50,527 nucleotides of DNA, taken from contig JBNJDL010000002.1 of NCBI GenBank assembly GCA_051744825.1, positions 1 to 50,527 on the forward strand, written 5' to 3'. Source of the stretch: Bacillota bacterium. GTDB taxonomy: Bacteria; Bacillota; Halanaerobiia; Halanaerobiales; DATFIM01. The notes under the pieces were generated by a model, which was not told the DNA's origin, ran no database searches, and saw only the letters and a list, made by a program, of their open reading frames with translations. Positions 3,814 through 42,957 of this stretch are shown in pieces. A program made the position numbers and the translations under genes. Each line of letters opens with the position of its first letter. Within the stretch, counting starts at the first letter, position 1.

Positions 3814-3814
3814 A

Positions 3815-4739: not shown

Positions 4740-4833
4740 AAAAACACTCCTTGTATTCTAATTTTCTGATAGGCTATCTCATCAGTAGCGATTACCCAAT
4801 ATCGCTAGACTCCCAATTAAGGGAGTTTCGAAT
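4740..4833 (-). ncRNA. hammerhead-ribozyme-like element A (type II topology)
   Basis: Minus-strand RNA: AUUC GAAAC-UCCC-UUAAUU-GGGA-GUC^UAGCGAU-AUUGGGUA-AUCGCUA-CUGAUGAG-AUAGCCUAUCAG...AAGGAG. The GAAA, CUGAUGA and GUC cores are all in canonical order, with a 6-bp stem III and a 7-bp stem I. Predicted cleavage lies between plus coordinates 4808 and 4807. Confidence 0.7.
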
Positions 4834-21730: not shown

Positions 21731-21741
21731 AGGAGGTGACA

Positions 21742-23479: not shown

Positions 23480-24187
23480 GTGAAAAAGATAAAAGTAGTA
23501 AATGGTATAATAAGAAATAAGAAAATCAACGGGATACCAGTTAACATTGACATAGTAGAACCTTACGGCAAAAAGAATGTCAGGACGTTGATACCATTAA
23601 GAAATCAAATTGGAATTACATATCACAACACATCTAACACAAATCCATCAGCTACAGATGAAATGCATGCTATATGGTTACAAAATTTAGAGAATGCAGA
23701 TAATAAATATGTATCCGCTCATATATTTGTTGATGAAGATTCAATAACACAAGTAATACCATTGACAGAAGAAACCTATCACGCTGGAGATGGAAAAAAA
23801 GGCGTAGGGAATTCAGAAACTATATCTATAGAAATATGTGAAAACAAAAATTATAAAAAAGCAGAGAGAAATGCTCAATTATTAGGGGCATCTATGTTAT
23901 TGCAAAATCCTAATTGGGATATCTTTAAACATGAAGATTGGAGCGGTAAAAATTGCCCTAGAGTAATTTTAAATAACAATAGGTGGAATGCATTCAAGAA
24001 TGAAATTTTAGAGATATTTGAGCAATCTAAAGTGGTTAATTGGAAATTAAGGGGGTTGAAATACTTATCAGATGAATTTAATGTAGATTATGATTATTGG
24101 GTTGAAAGAATTAATGAACCAGCACCTGTATGGGCTATGATGGAAATTATAGCTAGAGTAACAAGGAAATTAATTAAAGGTGATTAG
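23480..24187 (+). CDS. N-acetylmuramoyl-L-alanine amidase (Amidase_2/PGRP-type endolysin)
   Basis: ITYHNTSN, AHIFVDEDSITQVIP, TYHAGDG, SIEICEN and HEDWSGKNCP match the zinc-amidase signature. GTG start. Confidence 0.85.
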   Translation: MKKIKVVNGIIRNKKINGIPVNIDIVEPYGKKNVRTLIPLRNQIGITYHNTSNTNPSATDEMHAIWLQNLENADNKYVSAHIFVDEDSITQVIPLTEETYHAGDGKKGVGNSETISIEICENKNYKKAERNAQLLGASMLLQNPNWDIFKHEDWSGKNCPRVILNNNRWNAFKNEILEIFEQSKVVNWKLRGLKYLSDEFNVDYDYWVERINEPAPVWAMMEIIARVTRKLIKGD

Positions 24188-26755: not shown

Positions 26756-26772
26756 GAAAGGGTGTATAACGA

Positions 26773-29700
26773 ATGAAATTTGAAAACTACACTTACAACA
26801 AAACAAAAGATGAAGATGATAAAAACAAAAAATTTAAATATGATAAGAGTAGAGCAAGTAAGTTGTATAACGATATTAGTGTTGACAATGTAAAATTTGA
26901 TAATTTAACATTCAAAGACCAAAAAACAGTTTTGCAATTTTCTGTAGACCAAGGTTTAGATGACTACAATGATTATAAAACTGATGTAATAAAAGATTAT
27001 GGCATTAAAAAGCCGTCTACTAGAACAAACACTACATTTACAGATGAAGGCAAAGTAGATTATGAAACTGAAAGCGTTGAATCAGAAGATAATTCAGGAG
27101 CTTTTTTTGGTAATGAAGTAAGCTATAATAATACACCTGAAGAAAATGCTAGATTGCAATCAGGTGATAAATTAAGAGATGATTTATTTAATTCAGCTAT
27201 TGAAGGTAAAACTAATCAGGGGAAGTTCTATGATTCTAATGATTCCCCTGCATCAAAGCTGAATTTAGATTCTTTATCATCAAAAGAATTATTTAATAAA
27301 GGTATTTATAGCGAAGGTGTAAAGAAAGAACAAGAAGAAATAAAGAATAAAAATCAATCTTTAGTTAAGACTCCTTATGGTGAAAAAACTTATGAAGAAT
27401 TCATGAAAGAAGTTGAAGAAAAGAATGATGTAGCAACTAAATTTAATCAAAAAAGATTAATGAAAAAACCAGTTGAATTAAAAAAATCACAGGTTAATTC
27501 TGAAAATTCAAATGAACCAGCACCTGAACCATTTGATTATATGACAAAAAAAGATTATGCTAACACTTATAAAGGTTTAGACATTGCGTTTAAACCTATT
27601 ATCCCTGCACAAATCCAAGTTTTGGATTCAAGCGGTAAATTGGATAAAGAAGCAACAAAAAAAGCTAGAGAGAGATTTGAAAATGGTGATTCAGTTAAGA
27701 AAACAGTCGGTGGAAGACATATGCATTATAATAAAGATGGTTCTATAGATACAGAAAGAATGAAAGAATCATATAAGACTGAAATGAATTACAAGAAAAA
27801 TGAGTCGCCAGTTGATGTAGATGAGTTATTAGATAAAAGCAGAGATGATTTCATAAATGAAGATAATTCTTTTAGTTTTGGTGCGTTAAAAGAAGATGTA
27901 ATAAGAAAAAGGATTTATAATAAAAGAAGTGAAATTTTAGGTCAAATGGCAGTTAAAGGTTCTAATGATGAATTAAAAAAAGATTTAGCTAAAATTGATT
28001 TGTTTATTGAAAACAATCCTGAAATGCAAGATTCTGAAAAAACTAAAGAATTTAGAAAAGAACATAAAATTTTAGGGTTCTTAGACAAAGGCATATCAGG
28101 AGTAACTGAACAAATTACACTTTGGACTAATAATTTAGGTGAAAAAGCAATGTTTACTGGATTAGGAGCTTTAACAGGAAATCCTCAAGCTGGTTATATT
28201 GCAGGTTCATCAAAAGATATGTTTATGATTGAAACAGGTAATGCATATGAAGAAGCTAGAAAAGCTGGAGTACCACATGAAATAGCTAGGAAAGAAGCTA
28301 TGAAGGCAGGGGTTATTAATGCTGGTATAGAATCAGGTCAAATGGCTTTATTTTTAGCAACGTCAGGATTGTCTAAAATAGGTTTATCAGGAGCTTCTAA
28401 AGTAGGAGCGGGTACTGTAGATAAATTATTTGGTAAATTTGCTTCTAAAGTAGCAAGTAAAACTGGTAGTCAATTAGCTGGGAAAGTAACTGAAATTGGT
28501 ACTAGATGGGGTGCTGGTGCTGTAGGTGAAATGACACAAGAGGGTTTACAAGCGGTAATGAGTAAGAAATATGTTAATGATTCAGTTAATTTAGCAGTAG
28601 AACGTGGATTTTTATCTAAAAATGAATTAAGAGAATATGATTTTGATGATTATTCAAAAGTATTTTCAGATGAATTTAAAGCTGTTGCACCTACTATGAT
28701 AATGTTAGGTGGTATTGGTGTAGGCACAGGTCAAGTTGTAGAAGCTACTAAAAACCATTTTGAAAAGCAAGATAAAAGAGCAAGACAGTTGTATGTTGCA
28801 AAATCAATGGACGAATTAAAATTTCAATCAAAGAAAATTGCAGAAAATCCTGAACATTTTGTAACTGGTGACAAGAAACAAAAAATAATGAATGATGTTA
28901 ATAATTATATTGAGTTTGCTAAAAAATATAAAGAAGATTTTTCAGAAGTCGCTGAATCCGACTTAGGTTTTGATGCAGATTTTGATGAAGTTTTAGATTT
29001 GTTAAACAACTATAAAAAGTATTTAAATGACTTAGAGCAAAATACAAAAGATACTTTAACTAATTCTATTGATTTTGAATTAGAAGAAGGAACTATAGAA
29101 AAAGCAAAAGAAGAATATTCAAAACTTGAAAAGGTATATAAAAATATTGGAATGTCAGAAGAAGATTTAATTGAAGTTAGAAATAAAATAGAAAATAAAG
29201 AAATTGAAAATGAAAAGTTTGTCAATAATATGGATAGTAAAAATTTAGGGAAAATAAAAACTCAAAGAAATAAAAACAATTTAAATATTGATGAACTTGA
29301 AAAAGAAATAATTTCTATTGATGAAAAAATAGAAAATACTGAATCAAAAAAACAAATTGAAGAATTAGAAGAACAAAAATCTTTAAAAGTATCAGAAATG
29401 GAAAATCTGATTAATGACAATGCTATAATTACACAAGAAATAGAAAACAGAATAGAAAGTAATGAAACAGGTAATACTGAAGAACAAGAAAGTTATCAAT
29501 CTCTATATGAAAAAACTAATGAAAATATTGAAAATAAAAATATTAGAATTGAACAAAACGAAATTGAACAAAACGAAATTGAACAAAATAAAATTGAACC
29601 GTTATCAGCCGAAGAATTAAAAAATAAAACAATACCATCTGATAGAGATTTTGAAAGTTTAGGCAGTAGAAAAATAAAATCTATGCAAAATGAATTTGAA

Positions 29701-32700
29701 GAATTAAAACCTTTCATACAAGAGCAAGCTAGAATTACTCAAGGTGAGTTTCAAGCTGGAGTTAAAGGCAAAAGATATCCTATATTAATGGAAGATAGTA
29801 CTAATAAGGCTGAAATAATAGGTTATGATGGTAATCCTAGAATAGCGTCAAAAACTGTAGATAGAATATTAAACAACACTAATGCAACTTACGCAAAAAT
29901 AAATGATGCTTTTAATAATATAATTGAAGGCAATGATAGAGCTAATTTAGCAACTGCTAAAAGAATAGAAGTTATACTAAATGATATATTAACAGAAGGA
30001 TATGAAACTTTTGAGGGTATTGAAATACCGCCTAACGAAGAATATATTCAAACTAAAAGAAGCTTAGGTTTGTCAGAAAATGATTTTGAAATTGGTGAAA
30101 CAGAAGTAGAATCACAAAATGTTGACCAATCTCAAACTAAATTAGAATCAAGTGAGGTTACTAATGAAAATAATCAAACTGAAAATGTGCAAACTGATGG
30201 AAAACAATCGGAGTTTGAACAAGAAAGCGAAGTTAGTCAACCTGAAAGTGTTCAAATGGAAGAAGTTGAAAAAGCAGTCGAATCTAAATCTCAAGCTAAA
30301 CCTAAGCGAGATGAACAAAAACGAGCAGACATAGGCAAAAGATTTTATCAAAAAATGAATACACCTGTAAATTTAGGCAATAAAATTTCTGAAATAAGAA
30401 ATAGACTTATGGAAAAAGGGGTAAGCGAACAAGAAATTGATTTTATATTAGATAATTATTTTGAAGTTATGCAACAATTACAAGATGCAGGAATGGAAGT
30501 TAATTTTGATTTAGAAATAGTAGAATCTATAAGTGATTTAATAGACCAAGACATTTTAAAAGAACATGGTTTAGAAGAAGCAAACAATATTATGATTGAC
30601 GGAGCTACATTAGTAGATTCTGATATTCATAAAAATTCAATAAAAACATCAATGGAAATTGTTAGTTTGCCTAAAAAACCTATAACTGAAACATTTATCC
30701 ATGAGCTATCAGAGATGTATGCTGAAATTTGGCGACAAAATGCATCTGAAAGTTTTGAATCAATTTCTCAAGAATTGATTGATAATGATTTGGCTACTGA
30801 AGATAACGTTCAAGAGTTTATAGCAGATTTTTTAACTGATAATGCACTTGAAAAGAAAATGGATTTAAATGATGAAAATTCAGCTATCGATTCTGTAGTA
30901 GGCGAATATGTTGCTAAGTTTAAAAATTGGGCTAGTAATATAATAAAAAGATTATCTAATTTAAGAAACACAAAAGAGCGAGTACCTGACTTGTTAAATA
31001 AGCAAGCAGAAATGTTTTCTAATGGGAATTGGAAAGAAGCAATAGAAATGTACCAAAGTGCTGAAAAAACTTATGAGAATTCATATTCTGACGTATTACA
31101 GCAAGAAATGGTTAATGATTTGGTTAGTGGTTCTTTAAATCAAACTAAAATGGTTAACAAGTATGGTATAGGTGAAAATCAAGCACAAATATTACTAGAA
31201 AAAATGAATCAATTAGGAAATGAAGAAGAAATAGTTAGTATATTTGATAAAGAAAAACCTAATTTAAGTGATGTAAAAGAAAAAACTTTAGAACCTAATC
31301 AGATAACAAATGAACAAGCTAAAGTTTTAAAAAGAAGTTTAAAAAGAGCTGAAGAAAAAGGTTATTCATTTAATGGTATTGCTAAAAACAATAAAGGTAC
31401 AGTTTATTATAGTAAAACTTTAAATGATAGTGCAAATAGTCTTGCTAATGGTAAAACTTTGGTAACAATGATTGGGAAATCAGGCAAAGTAGCTTCTGAT
31501 GTTAGTAAAGAAGTATTTGACAGTTTGGAAAAATTAGATACAGTTATGGACGAAGATGCTAACACTATATATGATTCTTCTGATTTTGAAGATTCAAATA
31601 ATAAATCGATTGAACAATCTGATGAAGCTGTATCTGATTATGAGATTGAAGAATATAAAGGAAAACCAGTACCAAAGGCTATAGAAAATATAAATTATAA
31701 ATTCAAGAAAGCCGAAGATTATACTAAAAGTGAATATCAAGAAATGTTTAATGTACCTGATAAAAAAATTGATAAAATGTTTGAAATTTTTCAGATTGTT
31801 GAACAGGAAATGTATTCTTTAACTGAAGATGTAAGAAGTCAAGAAAAATATCAAAAAGAATTATCTGATGGTACTAAAGAGAACATGAAAGATTATGAAC
31901 TAGAAGAAAAATCGTCTGTAGATATTCCTTATGCTGACAACTTACTTGAAGAAAAAAATATTGAATTGAATGATGCTAAAAATGAAATAAGAGCAACTAG
32001 ATTTAATGAAGTTGCAAAAGATATTATTGATACAATGGTGGAATATGAACAAAAAGAACCAATTGAGGTAGCAGATGAAGTAGTAGAAGAATCAAATAAA
32101 GTAGAAATCAACAGAAAAGAAAAATATAAACTAGACGGAAAAATAAAAAAACAATATAGTACTGAAAAAATTGATGGTAAGAGAGTTAGAAGTTATATAA
32201 TTAATGCTACTACTCAAGAAGATATTGATAGAATAGCAGATTATTTTGGTAATGAGAAAAAATATGAAGTTTTAACAGAAGGTATGGATACAGAAGGCGA
32301 TTATGAAAATAGTTTTGTAGAAGTATTCATTTATGATGATGAAAATACTGTAACTCAAGCTAGAGATTTATTCAATAGAGATTACAGAAAGTTAAAACAA
32401 AATGATTTTGAAGAAGTAGAAAATGCTAAAACTGAAAGTACTAATGATAAAAATGATAAACTAGAAACTTATGAAAATCATATTATCCCTGAACCTATTT
32501 TAGGTGCTGGAGTATTCGATAATAAAGATTATCATGAATATACAATTGATGAATATGCTGAAAAATTCAATATTCCTGAAGATAAAAAGGAAGAAGTATA
32601 TAAAATCTATAAAAAAACTGAAAGAAAAATAAATAGCGATTTATATGAAAAAGTTTATAATAAAGATAAATATTATAAAAAATCAAATGGTAAAAGAGTA

Positions 32701-35700
32701 TCACTCACAGATAAAGAATTAAGAGAAATGAAACCTATAGATGTAAAACATGCTACTAGTTTATTTAATGAACGAGAGATAGAAATTAATAATGTTAAGG
32801 AAAATGCTAGAAAGAACGAATGGAATAAAATTGCTAAAGAAGTTATAGATACTACTATAGATACTGAAAAAAATAGAGCAGAACTAGAAAAAGCTTTTGA
32901 TTATGATATTAAAGATGCAGATTTATCAGATGAAGCTTTTAAAAAAAGATATGGTATAACTAAAAAAGAAGCTTTAGATGGTGAATATTACAATGGTGAT
33001 GGTTCTTTAGAAGAAAAATATTTAACAGAAGGCGTTAATAGTCACATTAAAAATCCTTTAAAATTCAAAAAGAATATGGAAGCTGTATATAATAAAATGA
33101 CAGCCAAAAAGAAACTTGCTGATAATCATTTAGTTGTAAAAGCTAAGATAAGTCATTTAGATGAATCTTTAATAGTGGGAACAATAAGGAAAAAAAGCGG
33201 TGTTATTTTAACAACAGAAGAAGAATTTGATAGAAGCACAGAAACTAATATTCAAAATAGAAGTATAAAAGACGCAGTAAACCATAATGTTATGAGAATG
33301 AAGTCTAACTTTAAAGACAAATATATGAAAGACTTGAAAGCGTTAGATTCTTCAATAGAATTTAATACTGGTGGTGGCTTAACGGAACACAATGTAGCAA
33401 ATTTAAACTTTGAATATAATAATGACATGAGCGAAGGTACAATAACTTTAAATTTAGATGAAAAACTTAAAGAAAGCATTTCTGAAAAAGAACAACAAGA
33501 AATGATTGAAGAAGAAATATCTAAATTAGAGAAGCAATTAAATAAAGAAAATTTGGAATATGAATTACAGCCAAGTGAAGAAAGTTTTAAAAGAACTATC
33601 AAATTTGAAATAAAAGAAGATGTTAATAAATACAATGAAGAAATGAAGAAAAAAATTGATGATTTCTTTAGTGGGAAAATGACAGAAGATACTAGATTTT
33701 CAGTATCTGAAAGCTTTGAAAAAAGAAAATTTGATATTGATGAGCAAGGCAATTTATTATTTGTTCATGGAATATATAAAGATAAATTAAAAAAAGCTTT
33801 AGATTTAGGTGCTTTACCAATGCCTTCTTTGGCTATGATTGATGATAAAACTTCATATACTGGATTTGGTGAAATTTCACTTATAGGAAGTAAAGAGTTT
33901 TTCAATCCTAACAGAGCTTCAAATAATTTATTTGATTCTGATGTTTATTCACCAAGATTCCCAAGAACAAAAAGATTTTTATATCAAGAAAAAGCAAGAG
34001 AATGGTTAAATGATTTTATTTCTGAATATAAAAAGTTTGATGTTGAAGAAATTGAAGATTCAAGAGCAAGAAATTATTCAGACCCTGAAAGTTTAGCACA
34101 TGCTTTATATCGTTCACCAGCTATAAAAATAAAATATGCTAGTGAAGTATTAGGCGAAGAATATGATTATTTAACTGACAAAAAAGTTATAGAAACAACT
34201 AAGTATATTTCTAAATTGTTTAATAAGAATTTGAAAGATGATTTTATTCAATTTTTAAAAAATGAAACTATAATTGATGAAAAATATATTGATTTAATAA
34301 AAGAAAAAGGAATTAGAAAAGCGACTAAAGAACTTTCTTCTGAAATTACTGCTGATGGAGCAATTAATTCTAAAAAGAAAATGTTTGAATACTTTAAAGA
34401 AAATGTTGATTCTGAAATAACCTTTGAAGATTTTAAAGAAGAAGTTGGTTTTTATAAATCTGAATCAAAAGATGCTTTCAGTTTGATTTTTAAAGATAAT
34501 TTGTCTGAAATTAATGAAGAATTTTCAAATCATTATATTGATAAACAAATTTTTCCGTCAGGAGAATATTCTTTAACTAAAAAGTATAAAAAATGGTTAT
34601 CGAATAAAATTAAATCGGCAGGATTGTTTAGCGAACCTTATTTCACTGAATGGAATCCTGACCAAATGGAAGAAATAAAATATAAAGTAACACCTGAAAA
34701 CGCACTTAAACTTATGAAAAAGAAAAGTTTACAAGCTGGAGAAGGTAATTTAGTTAGTGGATTTAATGAGTTTAAAAGTGCTTTTGCAAAAAAATTAACA
34801 TCTTTCAAAGAAGCTAGAAAAAGAGCTGAAACAAACTTAGCTGATTTTGAAGAAAAAAAGTATAAAGAATATACAGATTCATTAAATAGCAAAATATTAG
34901 AATTTGTTAAAGATTATGATTTATCTACTGGAGGTTCTTCATTTGTAGATGCAGATGCTTTTATAGATACAGTTATAGAGTATAAAGAAAGCACTTTGCA
35001 CGAAATGCGTAAATATAGTGAAAAGTTAGATGCTAATTTTGAAGAAGCTAGTAAAAGATTTAATGAACTAATAACTTTGGCACAGACATTACCAGTTAAT
35101 TATTTTGAATTAAAACCTAATAGAATTGTAGGCTTTGATGAATTTAATTATGCTGTAGTACCTAATAAATTAGATGCTAATTTAAAAGAAAAATTATCTG
35201 ATTTAGGATATAATTTAATTCAATATGATGGTACTCCAAAAGGTTATAGAAAAGCATTAGCTGAAACAAAAGGTGACCCAAAAGTTAGATTTTCAGTAGA
35301 AAACATCGATGAGTCAGAAACGTTGACAGATGAGTCTTTAAAGGTAATAGAAGAAATTAAAGGTTCAGAAAAAGTTAACGACTATAAAAGAAGTGCTAAA
35401 AAAATAAAACAAAATGCAGATATAATCAGAAAAAACTTCGACCCAGTAGATAGTAGTGAAAGCTTTAGAATTGAAGAACTATTAAATAAAATAGATTACC
35501 ATATTAATTTCACTTTAAATGAAACAAACAATTATATAGATTTTATGGAAGATGGATTTGATGCTTTAGAAAAACATTTTAAAGAATTAAAAGAATATGG
35601 TGTGAATTTAGTAGATGATGGTTGGGTAAGAGTAGGACACCCAGTAAACAAGGCATTAAGACGTGAATATGAAACATTGAAAAGATTAACTAAAAAGCAA

Positions 35701-38700
35701 AAGAATAATGAAGGATATTTTCAAGATAGAATTAATGAAATATATCAACTTTTTAGTAAACACGGGCTTGAAAACCTTGATGAAATTGGTAATTTTATAG
35801 AAAGTTTACCAATGACAAAAAGAACTATATTATATGACAATGTTAGATTCTCAACGAATAAAGTAAGTGAAAATAGTATTGGTTATAATAAAGAATTGCC
35901 TAAATCTTACAATAGAGTGGCTGATAATTTTGATAAAAATGAAGTTTTAAATGTACATTATAACAATTTAAAAAATACTAATTTGCTTTTAGAATTGAAT
36001 AGAACTAAAGCAAGAGATGAATACGGCAATCCATTGTTATTGTTTCACGGAAGCACACATAAAATTAATTTTCCTTCACCTAATAAATCGACACCGCGTG
36101 GTTTTTTAGGCAAAAGTTTTTATACTAGCACAAAAGTTGATGATGTAATGACAAATTATTTATTAGATGGTTCTGATTTAAAACAAAGAAAAGGAAGATT
36201 AGAAGAAAAATTATATGAAATGCAAGATTATGAATTACTTGAAAAAGCAGATGCACATAACATTGATTATGACGAAATTTCACCTGATATACCAAACATA
36301 GTAGAAAAAATAGTAGATAAAGAATTGATTGGCGAAGGGGAATATGTTTATCCAGTTTATTTAGATATCAAAAATCCTTTCGTGATTGATGAAAACAGTA
36401 ATGATAGAACTATAAAAATTAGATATGATGAATATACTATGGAAATGTATGAAATAATACAAGAAAAAGAAAAAAGAATTAAAAAATTAGGTAGAATGGT
36501 AGCTGGAATGAATCCTAGTGAGAGGAATGAGTCATTTTTAGAAAATGCTAAAAAAGAAATAATAGAATTAGAAGAAGAACTTGAAATGGATATTGAAGAT
36601 TTTCAAGATGAAGCTATGTATTCGGAACTAGAAGGAAACCTTGTTGATATAGTTGAAGGTATTGCTTCATTCTTAAAATATGATTCTGATATAGAAGATT
36701 TCATTAATCAATCAGAAAATATAGAAGCAGAAATATATGAAGAATTAGATGCATATTTAAATGATTCAAATCCTTATTTAGAATTCACTCCATACGAAGT
36801 GTTTGAAGCAATAAAGAATGTATTAATAGATAAAGAGTTTATGTTTAATGATTTTCATTTAGATGATAATTTTTACAATCCAATAGGCGAAATTATAAGA
36901 CGTGGATTAAAAAGTGCTGGTTTTGATGGTGTAATATTAAAGAATGCTGAAGATAGATTTAATGGTTATGGTTTATCAGTACCTTATGGAACAGACCATT
37001 ATATGGCATTTAACTCTGACCAAATTTATTTCTTTGATGATTATGATTTAGAACAAAAAGAAAGAAATCCATATAAAAATGTTGATTGGGAAGATTATCA
37101 AATTGAAAATTCAGAAACTTGGGAAGAAAAAACTAAAAATAATAAAACAGTTAAACGTTATATGCAAGAACATGATGTTGTTGAAATGATATCTGTTGAT
37201 TGGTTAGATAAATTTAAAGAATTCAGAAGAAATCAAAAAGGTCTTTCAACTGCTGAAAATGCTGAACAACTTGTAAAATCTATTTCTGAAGAAGGTATTA
37301 AAGAACCTATAATAATAGATTATAATGCTAAATCTCAAAAAGCACATATTGCAGAAGGTAACAATCGGTTGATGATAGCACAAAAGATTGGTGCTGAAAA
37401 AGTGCCAGTTAGAGTCATGAATTCAAAATATGAATCTAATGTAATCAATTACAAGGTGCAAAATCCTAAAATAGATTCAAATACTAATCAAGCAGATTTT
37501 AAATTAACTGATATAGTGCCAAAATGGGAATTGGAAAACAATATTGAGCAAAACTACAATCTAAGGTTCTCGATGGAAAATATAAAAGATTTTAGAACTG
37601 AATTAACTGGTTCATTTAAAGGTCAAAATAATTTTTCTAAAATAGCTGTAGTAGATGATATTAAAATGGGAGAAATAGAATATTCTACATTAGAGAATGA
37701 TATAGATAATAAAATTTATATTAAAATGATTGAAGTACCAAAAGAGTTTAGAAGAAGGAAAATTGCACATCAAATGCTTTATGATTTGCAAGAAAACAAT
37801 CCTGATAAAACAATTGACTTTGGTTATTTTACAAGCGATGGTTCTAAAATGATAAATGCTATCGCAGATAAGGTGGAGAGTAAATACTATGATGATTTTG
37901 AAAGATTAGAGGAAATTAATAAAAAATTAGAAAGGTTAGAAAATGCTGATTATGATTCTCTATCTGAAGAAGAAAAAGAGTCGTGGAATCCTTTAAATGA
38001 TGAGCAAATTGATTTAGAAAATAAATTAAGAAACAAAAACAAGTATAATTACAAAATTAAACCTGTTGAAAATAATAATTTGGTTCAGCCAACATCAAAA
38101 AAATGGGATAAAGGAGCGACATACGAAGAAGTCAAAAAACAATTCCCTGATGTTAATGGTGAAGTGGAAGAAGGTAAAGAGGCTCATTCTACACAAATCA
38201 AGACAACTTTAGGAACTTATCAAAAAGTTATTGATGAATTTGTTGAAAAAAATAACAAAGTTTTAGATTTTAGTGCTGGTTTAGGTTATGGCACAAGATA
38301 TGGTAAATTTAAAAACTTTGGTATTGAATTTGACATTTCTTCAAAACAAGTAACTTTAGATAATGTACAAAGTAAATATTCTAAAATAATAACATCACAT
38401 GGCTATAAGAAGAAGAAAGATTCTTATGTTAAAGATATAAGTAATTTAGAAGAATCGGAATACATGTCTGATATTGATTCAATGATAAAAAAAATAAAAG
38501 GTTTATTCCCTGAAGATGCTGAAATGTTATTCGAAGCTAGCGAACCATTTGCAGAAGAATATTACAATCCAGAGTATACTGATTCAAAAGAAATAGCTTC
38601 AAATAAATATGATTTAGTTATTAATAATGCCGTATTAAATGTAGTGACTCAAGATGTAAGAGATGATATAGTTGCTGAAATAGGTAGAGTTTTAAAACCT

Positions 38701-41700
38701 GACGGCAAAGCAATAATAATGGCTCGTGGTAGAAGTGGCATTGTAAATTCTAAGACAGGCAAGAAAATTGAAGGTGGAAATAAATATGCTAGATATATGC
38801 CAAATAAAAAATCATATCAAAAAGGTTTTTCAAAAGGCGAATTATTTGAATATGTAAAAGATGTATTGAACCAAAAATCAGAAGGCGTTGATTTTGAAGT
38901 AGAAAAAATGCGTAAATCTAATTCAGGTACAGCATCAACTAAAAATGGCGTTATAATAACTAAGAAATCTAAGATGTTTGATGTTAGATTTTCAGCAGAA
39001 GAAAATAATATTCCTACAAGACCGCCAAGATTGCCTGATGACGCATTTTTTGAAATGGAAGAAGATTTATATGATGCTAAGATGAAACAATGGGAAAAGT
39101 ACCAAAATGACTTCAGAAAGCATACTAAAAAAATACTTGACCAAGATAATGTGTTTAGTATAAGAAAAGGTGATGATTTTGCGATTATACACCCAAGTAC
39201 CAAAGGTAGTAATTATCAAATTAGTTATTTTGATAAAGACGGCGTTTGGGGCGATACACAACATGAAACATTTGAACAAGTTATAAATGATTTATTTGAG
39301 CATAACTTTGATGATATAGAAAATTTAGAAAGAATGTCAGATGTTAGATTTTCAACTAATCAAGAAAAAGTAGGAAAAAAAGTAGGGTATACATCTTATG
39401 TTCATAAATCAGCAATAGATGCATTGAATAATAATTTAAAAAAATTACATGATAATGCAGTACAACATATACCAAAAGAATTTGGTGATTATGAAATAGT
39501 TAAAATTAATAAAAAGACAGGTTTTGTTAGTTTTATAAAATCACCTAATTGGGATACGGCACATGAACCTACAGTAGGGGATTCTATTAAAATTAAAAAT
39601 GATGGCGAATATAGTATAAGACATGCATCTAAAAAGAATCCTAAAATTTATCATCATAAACATTTATTTGTTAAAGAAAATTATGAAGGTTTTGATATTC
39701 AAGAGTCACGATTAAGAAGTCAAATTTGGAATAATTTAGATGGTATAAATAAACGAAAAATAGGTTCGAAAAAATATTGGGAAGAAACTGTATTACCTAA
39801 GATTAATAAGGAAATACAAAATCTTAAAGAAAATGATGAATATAATAAAAGAACAGATTTAACAGAAAATGTTGAAAAATGGTTTGAAAATCATGTGAGA
39901 TTTTCTACTGAAAATGTTGAAAAATCAAAACTTGATGAAAGAATAAGAGAATTAAAAGTTAAAATTGAGCAACTGGAAAAAGATGTAGAGAAAGACCCTA
40001 ATTTAAGATATGAGTTAAGAAATGCAAGAATTGAATATTTTGGTTTAGGCGTTGAAAAAATAAGTAGAAATACTGAATATGCTTTTGAAAAAGTAGTGAA
40101 TTCGTGGTTTCAATCAAAAGATTTAAAACAATTTAGAAGTATGGTTAAAATCAAAAAACTTCAAAATAGAATCAAAAGTATAACTGGAGAAAAAAGTAAG
40201 TTAGGCAATATAATTTATGGTAAAGAAGCTAAAAAACTAGATAGTGCAATACAAATTTATATTGATTTGTTAGGCAATACTGATGAAATGATTGAAAAAT
40301 ATTATGATAAATTAACTGATGAGCAAAAAGAAATTGTTGATTTAAGTCAAGATTTACCTGACGAAGCAAAGCAAATAGCTGATGAAGTACTAGCAATGTC
40401 AGAGGAAATAGGACAACGTGGTTTAAGTGCAGGAGTGCTTAAAAATCTTAGAGAAAATCATTTATCTAGATTTTGGTTAGATGATAAAGAAAGAGATAAA
40501 AGTAATGTATCTCATGCTAAATTCAGTACAAAAACTAGTCTTGCTAAAATGAGAACTTTAGAATCTATATTAGAAGGCTGGGCTAATAATAAAGAATTAG
40601 CTATGAAAGGTGCAACAACTGCGTTAGATGCACAACTTGATTCTTTAGTTAAAGCTATAGAAGATGATAGATTAATAAATACAATGTTAAACACTAAAGG
40701 TTTTGAAGATGAAAAATTGCTTATAAATTATAAAGCTGATGGGTATGTTCCAATAAATCACCCAATGTTTAAAAAATGGTTTCCAGTTAATGGTAATTAT
40801 GAGAAAAAAGATTTTAAAATTGATGATGCTAGAGAAGGTCAATTAGTAGAAGTAGATGGGAGAAAAGGCAGATTAGGTAAATTTGATAAGAAGCAAATAA
40901 AAGGACAATTTAATATTGATGGTGAAGAATCTAAGAAAATAATACCTATTATATTTGAAGAAAAAGGCGGAACAATTGTTGAAAAACATAATGTAAGCGA
41001 TATAGAAAAAATATCAGCTTCAGGTAAAGATTTCTTCATAGATGATAGCGACACAATTTGGGCTAACAAAACTTTATATATGCCTGAAAAACAAGCCAAA
41101 AGAATGAACAAAATTTTAGGAAAATCTACATTATACGATGTTGAATTCTTAGGCACAAAACCTTTTGATTGGTTTACAACAGTTAATGGCATGTTAAAGT
41201 CTTGGATACTTCAAACTTCATTTTTTCATCATTTAGCATTCATGAGAAGTTATTATTTAGGTACTAACAATAAAAAAACATCTGAATTGAACTTCTATAA
41301 AGCATATAAAAACGGAATGGATAAAATTGAGAATTTAAATGAAGATATTGAATTGTTAGTTAAAAATGGAATGACTTTAGGTAGATTACAAGATTGGGAA
41401 GAAAGAGTATTTAATCAAGAACAAGGTCGCATAGGCAAGTTATTAGATAAAACTAAAGCGACTAAAGTAATTAAGAATAAAATGTTGGAATATAGAGAAA
41501 GACAAGCTAATTTCTTATTTAAACAGTTTGGTGCTGGTCTTAAAGCACAAGCTGGTTTAATAGAATTAAGACATATGCGAAATAAATACAAAAAAGAGTT
41601 AGCTAATGGAACGGTCACTGAAGATAAAATTGCTGAAACAGTAGGTAATTTATTAAACAATGACTTTGGTGGATTGCATTTGCAAAGATTAGAGCGTAAT

Positions 41701-42855
41701 CAAACATTTCAACATGTAATGAGATTATTCTTATTAGCTCCCGATTGGACTGAATCTAATGTAAGAACAATGGTAGAAATGTTTAGTAAAGATAAAATGA
41801 AAGCGGATATTTCAAGAAGATTTTGGCGTAATGCATTTGCAAAAGGCGTTGGATTTACAGGGCTTATGAATTTGATGATGGCTCAAATAGGTAAGGAAGA
41901 CGATGAAGAAACTTTAGAAAAGTTTTTCAAAATGTATAGAAATGCTTGGGAAGCAAGCAATTTGCGTTGGACTGCTGTAAATATAACACCTTTATATGAA
42001 CTTGTAGCTAATAATCCTACTAACGAACAATATTTCTTTAGCTTAATAGGTCACTTTAAAGATGTGCTTAAATTTACTGCACACCCAGTAAGAAGTTTGA
42101 ATCATAAAGGTAGTACAATATTTAGAATTGGGCAAGAAATATTGACAGGTGAAGATTGGCGTGGTTGGGGATTCTCGACTACAGGTGATTATTTAGGTCT
42201 TAGCAAAAATTCAGATTTAGGTAAAGCGTTAGGTGCAACAACTTATGATGGTAAGCATAAAGGTGAAACTACACATTATGGTGGTGGTGGCTCAATAGGT
42301 TATGAAAATTTATTACCATTTATTGTTCACCAAATTATAAGTAACCAACCTATACAACTTCAAAATTTAATTGAATATCAATCAGGTCAATTAACTGGTA
42401 TAGAAGCAGTTGCTAATAGTGCTGGTCTAGATGTCAGAAGGACTTATGTACCGCCTGATAAAGCTAGATTTGATGAAAAATGGGATAAATTATATCAACA
42501 ATATAAAACAAATAGAGATACCGATGTAAAACCTAAAGGATACTCTGAAGCTTTTTATGATAGAATTTCTAGAATGAGAAGTCAAATTAGAGAAAACGAC
42601 AAAATGATAGAGCAATATACTGAACCTAAAGAAATTGATGCATTGAAACAAAAGATAAGAGCTATAGAAAATTCCAACAGAAGTGATGAATATAAAGATA
42701 AAATGATTGAATTTAATGAGAGAAAAATAGAAAGAATTGAAAAGAACCATGAGGAAAAAGAAGAAATCTATAAAAAAAGAATAGAAAAACTTCAAGAAAA
42801 AAATCAAAAACTATATGAAAAAGCTAATGAACTGTTGGAAAATAAAGGTTATTAA
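26773..42855 (+). CDS. giant polyvalent (multi-effector) protein, 5,360 aa
   Basis: Single uninterrupted ORF with a GGAAAGGGTG RBS, followed by a strong terminator. Contains several recognisable enzymatic modules, listed as sub-features below. Confidence 0.9.
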   Translation: MKFENYTYNKTKDEDDKNKKFKYDKSRASKLYNDISVDNVKFDNLTFKDQKTVLQFSVDQGLDDYNDYKTDVIKDYGIKKPSTRTNTTFTDEGKVDYETESVESEDNSGAFFGNEVSYNNTPEENARLQSGDKLRDDLFNSAIEGKTNQGKFYDSNDSPASKLNLDSLSSKELFNKGIYSEGVKKEQEEIKNKNQSLVKTPYGEKTYEEFMKEVEEKNDVATKFNQKRLMKKPVELKKSQVNSENSNEPAPEPFDYMTKKDYANTYKGLDIAFKPIIPAQIQVLDSSGKLDKEATKKARERFENGDSVKKTVGGRHMHYNKDGSIDTERMKESYKTEMNYKKNESPVDVDELLDKSRDDFINEDNSFSFGALKEDVIRKRIYNKRSEILGQMAVKGSNDELKKDLAKIDLFIENNPEMQDSEKTKEFRKEHKILGFLDKGISGVTEQITLWTNNLGEKAMFTGLGALTGNPQAGYIAGSSKDMFMIETGNAYEEARKAGVPHEIARKEAMKAGVINAGIESGQMALFLATSGLSKIGLSGASKVGAGTVDKLFGKFASKVASKTGSQLAGKVTEIGTRWGAGAVGEMTQEGLQAVMSKKYVNDSVNLAVERGFLSKNELREYDFDDYSKVFSDEFKAVAPTMIMLGGIGVGTGQVVEATKNHFEKQDKRARQLYVAKSMDELKFQSKKIAENPEHFVTGDKKQKIMNDVNNYIEFAKKYKEDFSEVAESDLGFDADFDEVLDLLNNYKKYLNDLEQNTKDTLTNSIDFELEEGTIEKAKEEYSKLEKVYKNIGMSEEDLIEVRNKIENKEIENEKFVNNMDSKNLGKIKTQRNKNNLNIDELEKEIISIDEKIENTESKKQIEELEEQKSLKVSEMENLINDNAIITQEIENRIESNETGNTEEQESYQSLYEKTNENIENKNIRIEQNEIEQNEIEQNKIEPLSAEELKNKTIPSDRDFESLGSRKIKSMQNEFEELKPFIQEQARITQGEFQAGVKGKRYPILMEDSTNKAEIIGYDGNPRIASKTVDRILNNTNATYAKINDAFNNIIEGNDRANLATAKRIEVILNDILTEGYETFEGIEIPPNEEYIQTKRSLGLSENDFEIGETEVESQNVDQSQTKLESSEVTNENNQTENVQTDGKQSEFEQESEVSQPESVQMEEVEKAVESKSQAKPKRDEQKRADIGKRFYQKMNTPVNLGNKISEIRNRLMEKGVSEQEIDFILDNYFEVMQQLQDAGMEVNFDLEIVESISDLIDQDILKEHGLEEANNIMIDGATLVDSDIHKNSIKTSMEIVSLPKKPITETFIHELSEMYAEIWRQNASESFESISQELIDNDLATEDNVQEFIADFLTDNALEKKMDLNDENSAIDSVVGEYVAKFKNWASNIIKRLSNLRNTKERVPDLLNKQAEMFSNGNWKEAIEMYQSAEKTYENSYSDVLQQEMVNDLVSGSLNQTKMVNKYGIGENQAQILLEKMNQLGNEEEIVSIFDKEKPNLSDVKEKTLEPNQITNEQAKVLKRSLKRAEEKGYSFNGIAKNNKGTVYYSKTLNDSANSLANGKTLVTMIGKSGKVASDVSKEVFDSLEKLDTVMDEDANTIYDSSDFEDSNNKSIEQSDEAVSDYEIEEYKGKPVPKAIENINYKFKKAEDYTKSEYQEMFNVPDKKIDKMFEIFQIVEQEMYSLTEDVRSQEKYQKELSDGTKENMKDYELEEKSSVDIPYADNLLEEKNIELNDAKNEIRATRFNEVAKDIIDTMVEYEQKEPIEVADEVVEESNKVEINRKEKYKLDGKIKKQYSTEKIDGKRVRSYIINATTQEDIDRIADYFGNEKKYEVLTEGMDTEGDYENSFVEVFIYDDENTVTQARDLFNRDYRKLKQNDFEEVENAKTESTNDKNDKLETYENHIIPEPILGAGVFDNKDYHEYTIDEYAEKFNIPEDKKEEVYKIYKKTERKINSDLYEKVYNKDKYYKKSNGKRVSLTDKELREMKPIDVKHATSLFNEREIEINNVKENARKNEWNKIAKEVIDTTIDTEKNRAELEKAFDYDIKDADLSDEAFKKRYGITKKEALDGEYYNGDGSLEEKYLTEGVNSHIKNPLKFKKNMEAVYNKMTAKKKLADNHLVVKAKISHLDESLIVGTIRKKSGVILTTEEEFDRSTETNIQNRSIKDAVNHNVMRMKSNFKDKYMKDLKALDSSIEFNTGGGLTEHNVANLNFEYNNDMSEGTITLNLDEKLKESISEKEQQEMIEEEISKLEKQLNKENLEYELQPSEESFKRTIKFEIKEDVNKYNEEMKKKIDDFFSGKMTEDTRFSVSESFEKRKFDIDEQGNLLFVHGIYKDKLKKALDLGALPMPSLAMIDDKTSYTGFGEISLIGSKEFFNPNRASNNLFDSDVYSPRFPRTKRFLYQEKAREWLNDFISEYKKFDVEEIEDSRARNYSDPESLAHALYRSPAIKIKYASEVLGEEYDYLTDKKVIETTKYISKLFNKNLKDDFIQFLKNETIIDEKYIDLIKEKGIRKATKELSSEITADGAINSKKKMFEYFKENVDSEITFEDFKEEVGFYKSESKDAFSLIFKDNLSEINEEFSNHYIDKQIFPSGEYSLTKKYKKWLSNKIKSAGLFSEPYFTEWNPDQMEEIKYKVTPENALKLMKKKSLQAGEGNLVSGFNEFKSAFAKKLTSFKEARKRAETNLADFEEKKYKEYTDSLNSKILEFVKDYDLSTGGSSFVDADAFIDTVIEYKESTLHEMRKYSEKLDANFEEASKRFNELITLAQTLPVNYFELKPNRIVGFDEFNYAVVPNKLDANLKEKLSDLGYNLIQYDGTPKGYRKALAETKGDPKVRFSVENIDESETLTDESLKVIEEIKGSEKVNDYKRSAKKIKQNADIIRKNFDPVDSSESFRIEELLNKIDYHINFTLNETNNYIDFMEDGFDALEKHFKELKEYGVNLVDDGWVRVGHPVNKALRREYETLKRLTKKQKNNEGYFQDRINEIYQLFSKHGLENLDEIGNFIESLPMTKRTILYDNVRFSTNKVSENSIGYNKELPKSYNRVADNFDKNEVLNVHYNNLKNTNLLLELNRTKARDEYGNPLLLFHGSTHKINFPSPNKSTPRGFLGKSFYTSTKVDDVMTNYLLDGSDLKQRKGRLEEKLYEMQDYELLEKADAHNIDYDEISPDIPNIVEKIVDKELIGEGEYVYPVYLDIKNPFVIDENSNDRTIKIRYDEYTMEMYEIIQEKEKRIKKLGRMVAGMNPSERNESFLENAKKEIIELEEELEMDIEDFQDEAMYSELEGNLVDIVEGIASFLKYDSDIEDFINQSENIEAEIYEELDAYLNDSNPYLEFTPYEVFEAIKNVLIDKEFMFNDFHLDDNFYNPIGEIIRRGLKSAGFDGVILKNAEDRFNGYGLSVPYGTDHYMAFNSDQIYFFDDYDLEQKERNPYKNVDWEDYQIENSETWEEKTKNNKTVKRYMQEHDVVEMISVDWLDKFKEFRRNQKGLSTAENAEQLVKSISEEGIKEPIIIDYNAKSQKAHIAEGNNRLMIAQKIGAEKVPVRVMNSKYESNVINYKVQNPKIDSNTNQADFKLTDIVPKWELENNIEQNYNLRFSMENIKDFRTELTGSFKGQNNFSKIAVVDDIKMGEIEYSTLENDIDNKIYIKMIEVPKEFRRRKIAHQMLYDLQENNPDKTIDFGYFTSDGSKMINAIADKVESKYYDDFERLEEINKKLERLENADYDSLSEEEKESWNPLNDEQIDLENKLRNKNKYNYKIKPVENNNLVQPTSKKWDKGATYEEVKKQFPDVNGEVEEGKEAHSTQIKTTLGTYQKVIDEFVEKNNKVLDFSAGLGYGTRYGKFKNFGIEFDISSKQVTLDNVQSKYSKIITSHGYKKKKDSYVKDISNLEESEYMSDIDSMIKKIKGLFPEDAEMLFEASEPFAEEYYNPEYTDSKEIASNKYDLVINNAVLNVVTQDVRDDIVAEIGRVLKPDGKAIIMARGRSGIVNSKTGKKIEGGNKYARYMPNKKSYQKGFSKGELFEYVKDVLNQKSEGVDFEVEKMRKSNSGTASTKNGVIITKKSKMFDVRFSAEENNIPTRPPRLPDDAFFEMEEDLYDAKMKQWEKYQNDFRKHTKKILDQDNVFSIRKGDDFAIIHPSTKGSNYQISYFDKDGVWGDTQHETFEQVINDLFEHNFDDIENLERMSDVRFSTNQEKVGKKVGYTSYVHKSAIDALNNNLKKLHDNAVQHIPKEFGDYEIVKINKKTGFVSFIKSPNWDTAHEPTVGDSIKIKNDGEYSIRHASKKNPKIYHHKHLFVKENYEGFDIQESRLRSQIWNNLDGINKRKIGSKKYWEETVLPKINKEIQNLKENDEYNKRTDLTENVEKWFENHVRFSTENVEKSKLDERIRELKVKIEQLEKDVEKDPNLRYELRNARIEYFGLGVEKISRNTEYAFEKVVNSWFQSKDLKQFRSMVKIKKLQNRIKSITGEKSKLGNIIYGKEAKKLDSAIQIYIDLLGNTDEMIEKYYDKLTDEQKEIVDLSQDLPDEAKQIADEVLAMSEEIGQRGLSAGVLKNLRENHLSRFWLDDKERDKSNVSHAKFSTKTSLAKMRTLESILEGWANNKELAMKGATTALDAQLDSLVKAIEDDRLINTMLNTKGFEDEKLLINYKADGYVPINHPMFKKWFPVNGNYEKKDFKIDDAREGQLVEVDGRKGRLGKFDKKQIKGQFNIDGEESKKIIPIIFEEKGGTIVEKHNVSDIEKISASGKDFFIDDSDTIWANKTLYMPEKQAKRMNKILGKSTLYDVEFLGTKPFDWFTTVNGMLKSWILQTSFFHHLAFMRSYYLGTNNKKTSELNFYKAYKNGMDKIENLNEDIELLVKNGMTLGRLQDWEERVFNQEQGRIGKLLDKTKATKVIKNKMLEYRERQANFLFKQFGAGLKAQAGLIELRHMRNKYKKELANGTVTEDKIAETVGNLLNNDFGGLHLQRLERNQTFQHVMRLFLLAPDWTESNVRTMVEMFSKDKMKADISRRFWRNAFAKGVGFTGLMNLMMAQIGKEDDEETLEKFFKMYRNAWEASNLRWTAVNITPLYELVANNPTNEQYFFSLIGHFKDVLKFTAHPVRSLNHKGSTIFRIGQEILTGEDWRGWGFSTTGDYLGLSKNSDLGKALGATTYDGKHKGETTHYGGGGSIGYENLLPFIVHQIISNQPIQLQNLIEYQSGQLTGIEAVANSAGLDVRRTYVPPDKARFDEKWDKLYQQYKTNRDTDVKPKGYSEAFYDRISRMRSQIRENDKMIEQYTEPKEIDALKQKIRAIENSNRSDEYKDKMIEFNERKIERIEKNHEEKEEIYKKRIEKLQEKNQKLYEKANELLENKGY
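28090..28750 (+). other. Gly/Ala-rich hydrophobic region of the giant protein (possible membrane-interacting segment)
   Basis: MFTGLGALTGNPQAGYIAGSS..., AGVINAGIESGQMALFLATSGLSKIGLSGASKVGAG..., WGAGAVGEM..., APTMIMLGGIGVGTG. Confidence 0.4.
29548..29598 (+). repeat. 15-nt in-frame tandem repeat (IEQNE x3)
   Basis: attgaacaaaacgaa x2, then attgaacaaaataaa, then attgaa. Confidence 0.9.
35990..37030 (+). other. tentative ADP-ribosyltransferase-like module (H-Y type) with a large insert
   Basis: NPLLLFHGSTH (His 3092) and GKSFYTSTKVDD (Tyr 3117). The distal AGFDGVILKNA...GTDHYMAFNSDQIYF resembles the terminal strand of ART modules from polyvalent proteins, but I see no clear catalytic Glu. Confidence 0.35.
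37180..37425 (+). other. ParB/sulfiredoxin-like (ParB N-terminal nuclease-type) module
   Basis: ISVDWLDKF...LVKSISEEGIKEPIIIDYNAKSQKAHIAEGNNRLMIAQKIGAEKVPVRV fits the pattern l..SI...G...Pi.v......y.i..G.hR..A....G....pv.v. Confidence 0.55.
37600..37870 (+). other. possible GNAT-fold acetyltransferase-like module
   Basis: IYIKMIEVPKEFRRRKIAHQMLYDL resembles GNAT motif A (V.pe.RrkGia..Ll), with K where the Gly is usually found. Confidence 0.3.
38170..38740 (+). other. class I SAM-dependent methyltransferase module
   Basis: Motif I KVLDFSAGLGYGT, then YDLVINNAVLNVV and IGRVLKPDGKAIIMARG, with a long insert after motif I. Confidence 0.65.
41160..42360 (+). other. C-terminal hydrophobic/aromatic module of the giant protein
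   Basis: WFTTVNGMLKSWILQTSFFHHLAFMRSYYLG, LFLLAPDWTESNV, GVGFTGLMNLMMAQIG, WRGWGFSTTGDYLG and GGGGSIGYENLLPFIVHQIISNQP. Confidence 0.4.
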
Positions 42856-42864
42856 TGTTTTTTT

Positions 42865-42891
42865 AGCACCGTTAATTCGGTGCTTTTTTTA
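42865..42891 (+). terminator. rho-independent terminator after the giant ORF
   Basis: AGCACCG-TTAATT-CGGTGCT, a 7-bp stem, followed by TTTTTTT. Confidence 0.8.
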
Positions 42892-42928: not shown

Positions 42929-42957
42929 TTGACATTCTCAAAAAGGTAATGTATAAT
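42929..42957 (+). promoter_or_regulatory. consensus sigma70 promoter (early rightward module)
   Basis: TTGACA (42929-42934), exactly 17 nt of spacer, TATAAT (42952-42957). Confidence 0.75.

Follow-up and report, generated by a model that had tools for sequence, protein, structure and literature searches.

Polyvalent proteins carry 2-15 unrelated conflict domains within one polypeptide, with PBECR, ART-PolyVal, ParB-variant, methyltransferase and LPD domains as their signature; in phages the genes adjoin the portal-terminase or other late genes, and the prediction is that their products are packaged and enter the cell along with the DNA (Iyer, Burroughs, Anand, de Souza and Aravind, 2017; PMC5512222). 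The closest counterparts in cultured phages to the protein described here are the 'DarB-like' giants gp75 of Burkholderia phage Bcep22 (4,602 amino acids, aa), JC1 gp69 (4,515 aa) and gp47 of the Stx phage phi24B (2,807 aa). JC1 gp69 has been found in purified virions by mass spectrometry (PMC9144972), as has phi24B gp47, a proposed ejection protein (bioRxiv 10.64898/2026.04.10.717836). Here we describe a single gene of 16,083 nt in a 50,527-nt stretch of DNA (contig JBNJDL010000002.1; hereafter the window, the whole stretch analysed), which takes up about 32% of that 50.5-kb stretch and encodes a protein of 5,360 aa, the largest such protein among those compared here. With head-packaged polyvalent proteins a phage deals its first blow to host defence, and few of the modules in them have been characterised. 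Our analysis supports the reading of this giant, from its sequence, as a polyvalent protein as Iyer et al. defined the class, and the domain comparisons show an architecture in which a Gly/Ala-rich N-terminal module and a C-terminal domain of about 800 aa enclose some 3,700 residues of cargo.

Architecture of the giant protein

The polyvalent reading, which the original prediction had already put forward, is borne out by several lines of evidence. At least two unrelated domains lie in separate modules of the giant, among them the class-specific PBECR5 and ART-PolyVal domains together with unrelated enzymatic modules; the gene closes a structural operon, preceded by co-oriented genes for terminase, portal, major head, fibre-like and amidase proteins; and its relatives hold a polyvalent repertoire. 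The cargo consists of a domain at aa 950-1107, a duplicated K/E-rich region and six modules delimited by a linker motif, Arg-Phe-Ser (RFS). The parts of the gene are as follows.

26754-26762, plus strand: purine-rich, Shine-Dalgarno-like sequence AGGAAAGGG, 10 nt 5' of the ATG, read from the sequence
26773-42855, plus strand: giant open reading frame (ORF), ATG start, 5,360 aa, 621 kDa, isoelectric point 5.1, read from the sequence
26773-28092, plus strand: N1, N-terminal region without a function or match by family search, aa 1-440
28093-28872, plus strand: N2, Gly/Ala-rich conserved N-terminal anchor, aa 441-700
29547-29599, plus strand: in-frame 15-nt tandem repeat encoding IEQNE x3.5, in the K/E-rich aa 701-940
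29593-30162, plus strand: N3, alpha+beta domain without a Pfam model, aa ~941-1130, core aa ~950-1107
31579-33042, plus strand: K/E-rich internal duplication, aa ~1603-1800 versus ~1877-2090
33694-35286, plus strand: M1, PBECR5, a predicted BECR-fold RNase (aa 2307-2536), and a conserved C-terminal extension; aa 2308-2838, RFS start
35287-35844, plus strand: M2, no assigned function, sub-threshold matches only; aa 2839-3024, RFS start
35845-37563, plus strand: M3, ART-PolyVal-like ADP-ribosyltransferase (ART; aa ~3085-3232) and ParB_N-like segment (aa ~3471-3551); aa 3025-3597, RFS start
37564-38985, plus strand: M4, weak GNAT-like segment (aa ~3610-3680) and class-I S-adenosylmethionine (SAM) methyltransferase (aa ~3771-4068); aa 3598-4071, RFS start
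38986-39345, plus strand: M5, small module without a family match, 31% identical to aa 2095-2187 of library protein P0088; aa 4072-4191, RFS start
39346-39897, plus strand: M6, like the C-terminal part of TIGR04096; aa 4192-4375, RFS start
39898-42852, plus strand: M7, long helices and the conserved ~800-aa C-terminal anchor; aa 4376-5360 (985 aa), core aa ~4430-5230, RFS start

The strongest domain match in the giant is that of M1 to PBECR5 (E 5e-18, 66 bits against a cut-off of 25; phrog_22978 at 1.5e-19), a domain absent from the original prediction, which had named ART-like, ParB-like, GNAT-like and SAM-methyltransferase signatures and had proposed profile-based annotation as a check. Such profile searches did return conflict-related domains. 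In M3 the ART-PolyVal match is borderline (E 5.5e-7, 30.9 bits against a cut-off of 31.2) and is backed by a BLAST match at 1e-9 to the ART-PolyVal part of P0016, while the ParB-like signature was recovered by ParB_N (1.4e-5, 25.5 bits against 26.3), by TIGR00180 (6.7e-7) and by PHROG ParB profiles down to 5.5e-8; a ParB-type match was also all that PADLOC returned. The methyltransferase of M4 was found by Methyltransf_11 (1.8e-5, above the cut-off, covering only the C-terminal part of the profile); it is 36-44% identical to segments of P0029, P0030 and P0035, and its tblastn matches lie in Pelagibacter, Roseobacter and Mycobacterium phages. Only a weak similarity could be recovered for the GNAT-like signature (Acetyltransf_CG, E 0.015), and a phmmer comparison of M3 and M4 with PDB sequences gave nothing significant. 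M6 (aa 4190-4349, window 39340-39819) matches profile positions 313-471 of 478 of TIGR04096 at E 1.1e-13, a Dnd-associated family named 'DNA phosphorothioation-associated putative methyltransferase', as well as phrog_16075 (1e-17). Its homologues by tblastn are stand-alone hypothetical proteins of KVP40-like Vibrio myoviruses, and a link of this module to defence or counter-defence by modification of the DNA backbone is possible. No numbered LPD Pfam domain and no zincin peptidase (MPTase) domain was detected in the giant.

Searched as a block, the module array (aa 2308-4375) has 57 relatives, mostly proteins of 3,000-3,500 aa with PBECR5, ART-PolyVal and LPD domains on contigs of about 40 kb. 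The two contexts examined (L084 and L085) resemble temperate phages whose hosts are of Firmicutes type, and in both the protein closes the structural module. These elements of about 40 kb (L084, 25203-26780; L085, 20630-22030), which encode PBECR5-bearing relatives of about 3,000-3,400 aa, carry serine recombinases and repressor-like helix-turn-helix (HTH) genes and on this account look temperate.

The joints between the modules are marked by the motif [VLT]-R-F-S, which stands at aa 2308, 2839, 3025, 3598, 4072, 4192 and 4376, each time in front of a different, unrelated module. These seven copies compare with 0.56 expected, an enrichment of about 12-fold that was reached in 0 of 20,000 shuffles, and RFS is the most over-represented tripeptide of the protein; the claim of at least six motif-delimited modules is thus upheld by seven RFS-started segments. 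In many of the 57 homologues the alignment to the giant begins at a D-[IV]-R-F-S-L of their own and the next RFS marks the module end, and L060, P0041, P0053 and P0070 carry two or three copies each. The enrichment is not general: 149 non-redundant proteins with the aa 950-1107 domain hold 26 copies against 23.4 expected, and the motif is specific to a subset of proteins and, as D-I-R-F-S-L, to the start of the module that in the homologues aligns with the PBECR5 module of the giant. A repeat at the level of DNA was ruled out, since the codons differ among the copies. The literature searched yielded no account of the motif, which we considered as a candidate processing site or a candidate cassette joint; no protease was seen to co-occur with RFS-rich proteins among the few loci examined, without a systematic test.

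The N-terminal half is less readily assigned. N1 is common only to P0087 and P0089 (26% identity, collinear) and partly to P0088, and no informative relative was found for aa 1-440 or for aa 1131-2307. A homologue search with aa 1-2307 gave no match at E<=1e-4, probably because low-complexity words swamped it. K, E, D, N and Q make up 0.57 of aa 701-940. The in-frame repeat and the internal duplication of the original prediction are both present, the two copies of the latter being 28% identical over 216 columns (pairwise E 1e-29, without composition correction). Within N3, the domain at aa 950-1107 stands out as widespread. An exhaustive phmmer search of a 50%-identity protein library with aa 1-1200 found it in 138 proteins at E<1e-10, where it is either one part of a large polyvalent protein or stands by itself in a protein of 150-340 aa; it occurs in about 50 proteins of the type of phi24B gp47 and in giants with either of the two C-terminal anchors discussed below. 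In one protein (P0094) it is fused to GNAT. An AlphaFold 2 (AF2) model of the core has a predicted local distance difference test score (pLDDT) above 90 and an alpha+beta fold; the domain has no Pfam model, and a model of aa 920-1140 had no Foldseek match in the PDB at E<=0.001. The suspicion that the giant might hold undescribed effector domains therefore stands in part: at least one undescribed domain is present, and its role as an effector is only putative.

The gene itself is real and not an annotation artefact. Its coordinates, ATG and 5,360 codons are exactly as first read, the two other frames of the plus strand hold 521 and 1,013 stops across the same stretch, and the chance of 5,360 stop-free codons at the local base composition is about 1e-230. 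GC contents at the three codon positions are about 0.41, 0.27 and 0.14 in each 3-kb block, without a compositional break, and GC and skew are flat at 2-kb resolution; this uniformity gives no sign of joined unrelated sequences. Antisense ORFs of at least 80 aa inside the gene, noted earlier as low-complexity, are S/L/F-rich shadows of the K/E-rich sense frame. The ribosome-binding site and terminator of the original prediction were likewise found, the former 10 nt before the ATG and the latter as a hairpin and T-run after the stop. An identical 5,360-aa protein is present in a public protein library (P0086).

The two anchors and their relatives

The C-terminal region of about 980 aa that the original prediction had set apart is a conserved domain. 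M7 has 28 relatives among metagenome proteins, at E 1e-86 to 1e-161, and further loci in IMG/VR (80) and in contigs of metagenome-assembled genomes (MAGs; 38); its core always lies at the C-terminus of the host protein, and an alignment of the family (A1) has 34 invariant columns, including FFHH, DFGGLHL and LAPDWTESN. The ORFs that carry it are between 1,084 and >4,583 aa long (median about 2,000), several of them running off the 10-kb flank. An AF2 model of M7 (pLDDT 78, predicted template modelling score 0.72) is mostly helical. No match was found in Pfam or PHROG, nor in the PDB by phmmer or Foldseek (E<=0.001); against BFVD, Foldseek returned the C-terminal pieces of LPD-annotated phage proteins (best E 2e-13, TM 0.46), one of them labelled LPD38.

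The second conserved part is N2, the Gly/Ala-rich region of the original prediction, with a Gly/Ala fraction of 0.23 against about 0.08 elsewhere in the giant. BLAST matches it to the N-terminal parts of P0017, P0022, P0035, P0067, L027 and L040. Iterative searches, for which compositional bias is a caveat, place it in 74 proteins, always near the N-terminus and with both types of C-terminal anchor, and in 21 of 67 full-length IMG/VR members of the M7-type family. Because this region and the C-terminal domain are conserved at the ends of proteins whose cargo varies, the family is, as judged from its sequences, a two-ended scaffold with a middle filled by variable polyvalent cargo. The C-terminal region and the Gly/Ala-rich region had originally been listed without a role; both are conserved anchors with the cargo between them. 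The cargo is broad: 13 large relatives together hold SNF2, ResIII, ART-PolyVal (9e-40), SLT lytic transglycosylase (1.5e-30; in two relatives), LPD1, LPD23 and ddrB-ParB domains, and also GGDEF, RadC, Eco57I methylase and 2'-5' RNA ligase domains. At the other extreme, minimal members of about 1,100 aa (in L001 and L003) stand behind T7-type portal, capsid and tail/nozzle-sized genes and a pair of smaller ORFs, where T7 has its genes for gp14-gp16, and these too have a Gly/Ala-rich N-terminal segment alignable to aa 441-700 of the giant. A distal location in a podovirus-like structural module was seen for the M7-type gene in L001, L003 and L088.

The 38 matches in the genome collection (L089-L126, with L091, L092 and L123 of particular note) all come from MAGs, chiefly of anaerobic sediment-type lineages, and no isolate is among them. 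A number of short contigs assigned to Nanoarchaeota look like mis-binned viral contigs, and three matches lie within a 7.6-Mb chromosome assembly of a member of the Prolixibacteraceae. Among 50,697 GenBank phages, megablast with the ORF and tblastn with the N-terminal half of the giant found nothing, tblastn with its C-terminal half found only short methyltransferase and M6 matches, and tblastn with a family member (P0027) again found nothing.

The search with aa 1-1200 returned, besides the giant itself, three proteins of about 3,800 aa (P0087, P0088 and P0089), which are its closest relatives. P0087 and P0089 are collinear with the giant over aa 1-655, over aa ~770-1575 and throughout the C-terminal module (38-39% identity), with a middle that is about 1,500 aa shorter and holds different cargo. 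The gene context of P0087, on a contig of 54 kb, is the same as that of the giant: a 715-aa ORF stands before it and an amidase gene after it, and that contig shares structural ORFs of 579 and 214 aa with the window. The third, P0088, resembles the giant in its N-terminal part (aa 244-694 against aa 319-760 of the giant; 28% identity, E 3e-51) and has the PBECR5 module in common with it, and ends in a different region of about 900 aa with Pfam LPD38 (E 5e-35), homologous to the C-termini of phi24B gp47, Bcep22 gp75 and the roughly 50 proteins found through the aa 950-1107 domain. Since homologous N-termini thus end in either of them, the two large C-terminal anchors, M7-type and LPD38/gp47-type, appear exchangeable. 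The giant holds only one of the two: a hidden Markov model (HMM) of the gp47-type C-terminus has no match in it at E<=10, nor does Pfam LPD38, and a comparison of M7 with phi24B gp47 as a single sequence was negative.

Phage context and proposed delivery

By its gene content the window is phage DNA, with a GC content of about 28%, no tRNAs and no terminal repeat between its ends. The features around the giant gene are as follows.

7805-9694, co-oriented upstream of the giant gene: terminase
10717-12789, co-oriented upstream of the giant gene: portal
13862-15034, co-oriented upstream of the giant gene: major head protein
20032-21033, co-oriented upstream of the giant gene: fibre-like ORF
21736-22725, plus strand: S8 protease ORF with a Cu_amine_oxidN1 domain, GTG start, within the structural module
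23480-24187, co-oriented upstream of the giant gene: Amidase_2
24422-26755, plus strand: 777-aa ORF, conserved partner, directly upstream of the giant gene
42865-42884 (or to 42894, as alternatively delimited), plus strand: intrinsic terminator closing the late operon, 7-bp stem with 5 GC pairs, T-run
42929-42957, plus strand: sigma-70 promoter TTGACA-17-TATAAT, 12/12 consensus, 45 nt past the terminator, opening the next transcription unit

The giant gene is the last of the late structural operon, which ends at the terminator; beyond it the next unit holds a small HTH-like ORF followed by ERF, SMC-like and HNH genes. Terminator and perfect promoter together form a sharp boundary between late and early operons. 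The 777-aa ORF belongs to no Pfam, PHROG or NCBIfam family and has 30% identity to the 715-aa ORF that immediately precedes the P0087 gene (L088, 7833-9980); it probably forms a functional pair with the giant gene. In L001, L003, L084, L085, Bcep22 and phi24B, too, the giant or anchor gene has a mid-sized ORF in front of it.

Further upstream, the S8 ORF matches the subtilase profile Peptidase_S8 at E 9e-17, over profile positions 98-273 only, and ends in a Cu_amine_oxidN1 domain (E 3e-16). Its product is perhaps an enzyme of the virion that degrades the envelope, or else a protease for processing. We take the Cu_amine_oxidN1 domain, together with the low GC content, to point to a Firmicutes-type host. 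By portal and capsid, the phage comes nearest among cultured ones to the Arthrobacter phage Jasmine group, and then with no more than 24-27% identity. Jasmine gene 29 (L128, 17391-22802) encodes a 1,803-aa hypothetical protein with a Gly/Ala-rich N-terminus in the equivalent position, before the endolysin and holin genes; it matches neither the M7-type nor the gp47-type anchor HMM, and may represent a third scaffold type.

We consider it likely, by analogy, that the giant is a virion-internal polyvalent protein of the ejection type. This view draws on the synteny of its family with the T7 core genes, the SLT domain in its relatives, the N-terminus it has in common with gp47-type proteins, and the virion data on JC1 gp69 and phi24B gp47. 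The following model would fit. A few copies would be built into the procapsid together with the 777-aa partner and, at infection, would exit by way of the tail, before the DNA or together with it; the conserved ends would help to form or anchor a conduit across the envelope. The enzymatic modules would then be in the cytoplasm before any phage gene is expressed, where host RNA could be cleaved by them, proteins of the host ADP-ribosylated and DNA bound or modified, so that restriction and other defences are blunted; more speculatively, the [VLT]-R-F-S linkers might serve as cut sites that release separate effectors. A wider version of this model is doubtful as a whole. In it, N2 and M7 would form a hitherto undescribed chassis for protein delivery in uncultured short-tailed phages, most of which infect anaerobes. 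This chassis would be functionally interchangeable with the LPD38-type one of Bcep22 and phi24B and would have the aa 950-1107 domain as a new core component, and processing at the RFS sites, in the capsid or after ejection, would release six effectors from between an N-terminal piece of some 2,300 aa and the C-terminal anchor.

Several observations weigh against delivery from the virion in the form proposed. Several of the domain calls are at or below curated cut-offs, and only one moderately hydrophobic segment was found by hydropathy (in N2, aa 637-657), so that a membrane role is not evident. The podovirus morphology of the phage is judged from the fact that no tube, sheath or tape-measure gene was recognised in the window, and from distant relatives. 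M7 has no homology to T7 gp15 or gp16 (hhalign probability 0.4-0.5%), and its similarity to phi24B gp47 is unstable, with an hhalign probability of 52% for small alignments that falls to 1.9% for larger ones and no match by hmmsearch. Finally, at BLAST sensitivity the M7-type family has 0 members among the 50,697 GenBank phage records and is known from genes alone.

Of the other explanations, the one that survives best holds that the giant is a late, non-packaged cytoplasmic multi-enzyme that acts in the producing cell, treating progeny DNA, by methylation for instance, and shutting down host RNA. Methyltransferase, ParB-like and TIGR04096-C-like modules could indeed act on replicated phage DNA, and the packaging of the giant is itself argued by analogy. 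We nevertheless judge this unlikely, given that the gene is co-transcribed as the last of a structural operon, that analogous giants are virion-associated, and that minimal members free of cargo are conserved in structural modules, so that the scaffold itself must have a role.

Less probable again is a structural tail or adsorption component (an internal ruler, a needle or something fibre-like) in which the enzymatic-looking segments are incidental or envelope-degrading. The gene does lie near fibre-like, protease and amidase genes, the protein has long helical and K/E-rich stretches, and M7 shows a weak, non-significant similarity to tape-measure proteins in BFVD (E>0.2). PBECR5, ART-PolyVal, ParB and SAM-methyltransferase domains, however, act on intracellular targets; the five-fold length range of the family is unfit for a ruler; and Pfam and PHROG scans of the giant found no beta-helix, fibre or receptor-binding domain.

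A weapon against competing bacteria, akin to a polymorphic toxin and released at lysis or carried by a prophage, is very unlikely. RNase and ART modules are typical toxin domains and some relatives are on the temperate elements with serine recombinases described above, but the modules of the giant are internal rather than C-terminal tips, and its ends are conserved as in proteins of structural modules. In addition, no secretion signal or immunity gene was noticed, though neither was specifically searched for, and no integrase was detected among the window ORFs of at least 150 aa that were scanned, a scan that was not exhaustive.

An artefact in which misassembly or annotation fused two or more genes is hardly credible, even for an apparently metagenomic-type sequence without a close relative, whose capsid protein has no close relative in IMG/VR and no entry in the contig index searched, since composition and codon-position usage show no break over 16 kb, the identical protein is in a public library, relatives of >4,000 aa are common, and P0087 and P0089 answer the original concern about an assembly chimera by carrying both ends in single ORFs of independent assemblies, which makes an assembly fusion very unlikely.

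Comparison with known systems

Delivery of the giant from the virion would place it beside several described systems. The main text of the study that defined polyvalent proteins makes no mention of the M7-type anchor, the aa 950-1107 domain or the RFS motif, and the terms 'RFS', 'gp16' and 'eject' have 0 occurrences in it (PMC5512222). MuF-type head proteins and toxins differ from the giant in their N-terminal Phage_Mu_F (SPP1 gp7) domain, for which there is no Pfam or PHROG match anywhere in the giant.

Phage P1 DarB is a head-packaged anti-restriction methylase-helicase and T4 Alt a head-packaged ADP-ribosyltransferase. The giant would resemble both in principle, as head-stored enzymes that are injected with the DNA and act before gene expression, with ART and methyltransferase among the activities; those are single- or two-function myovirus proteins, and no homology is claimed. 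The virion RNA polymerase of coliphage N4, of about 3,500 aa, is encapsidated and expelled into the cell with two ejection proteins (PMC13434306). The giant would likewise be a very large protein encapsidated by a podovirus, and differs in its activity, no RNA polymerase module having been detected in the giant by Pfam, PHROG or NCBIfam. The gp14-gp15-gp16 proteins of T7 share with the M7-type family the gene position of its minimal members and a large, mostly helical protein, and gp16 shares with two relatives of the giant an SLT domain; the T7 ejectosome is set apart by the lack of a Foldseek match of M7 to any PDB entry, where the solved T7 ejectosome proteins should be included.

The 'DarB-like' giants of Bcep22, JC1 and phi24B come closest, and the giant would work in the manner of these proteins of Bcep22-like and 933W-like podoviruses. 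They too are encoded by the last or near-last structural gene of a short-tailed phage (of about 45-65 kb) with a mid-sized ORF upstream, and Bcep22 gp75 is, like the giant gene, the last of its structural operon and followed by a terminator. They also share a Gly/Ala-rich N-terminus, a string of unrelated enzymatic or LPD domains and a large conserved C-terminus, and they are linked to the giant by P0088 with its giant-like N-terminus and gp47-type C-terminus. The differences lie in the sequence family of the C-terminal 800-900 aa or so (LPD38 in place of M7), in the cargo and in the host. The HMM built on the gp47-type C-terminus recovers gp75 and gp47 along with about 50 metagenome proteins and not the giant, and the M7 HMM finds none of these. 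Their cargo is a lytic transglycosylase, SNF2 or methylase-helicase, against PBECR5, ART, ParB, GNAT and methyltransferase in the giant, and their hosts are Gram-negative, whereas the GC content and Cu_amine_oxidN1 domain of the window point to a Firmicutes-type host. In length the giant exceeds Bcep22 gp75 by 16%. With that protein at 4,602 aa and uncultured relatives of >4,583 aa, the original description of the giant as an extreme example is right for size, and only incrementally.

These comparisons do not call for a new category of protein, comparable giants having been annotated for years in cultured Burkholderia podoviruses and detected in virions. Rather, the giant belongs to a sister scaffold family with, so far, uncultured members only. 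Such proteins appear to grow by taking up cargo between a pair of conserved anchors, with N-termini that are homologous joined to either of two unrelated-looking C-terminal anchors. The family offers, as objects for study, the M7 anchor with its more than 100 relatives in the collections searched, a domain of about 160 aa (aa 950-1107) with a confidently predicted fold, and the RFS linker as a candidate processing mark.

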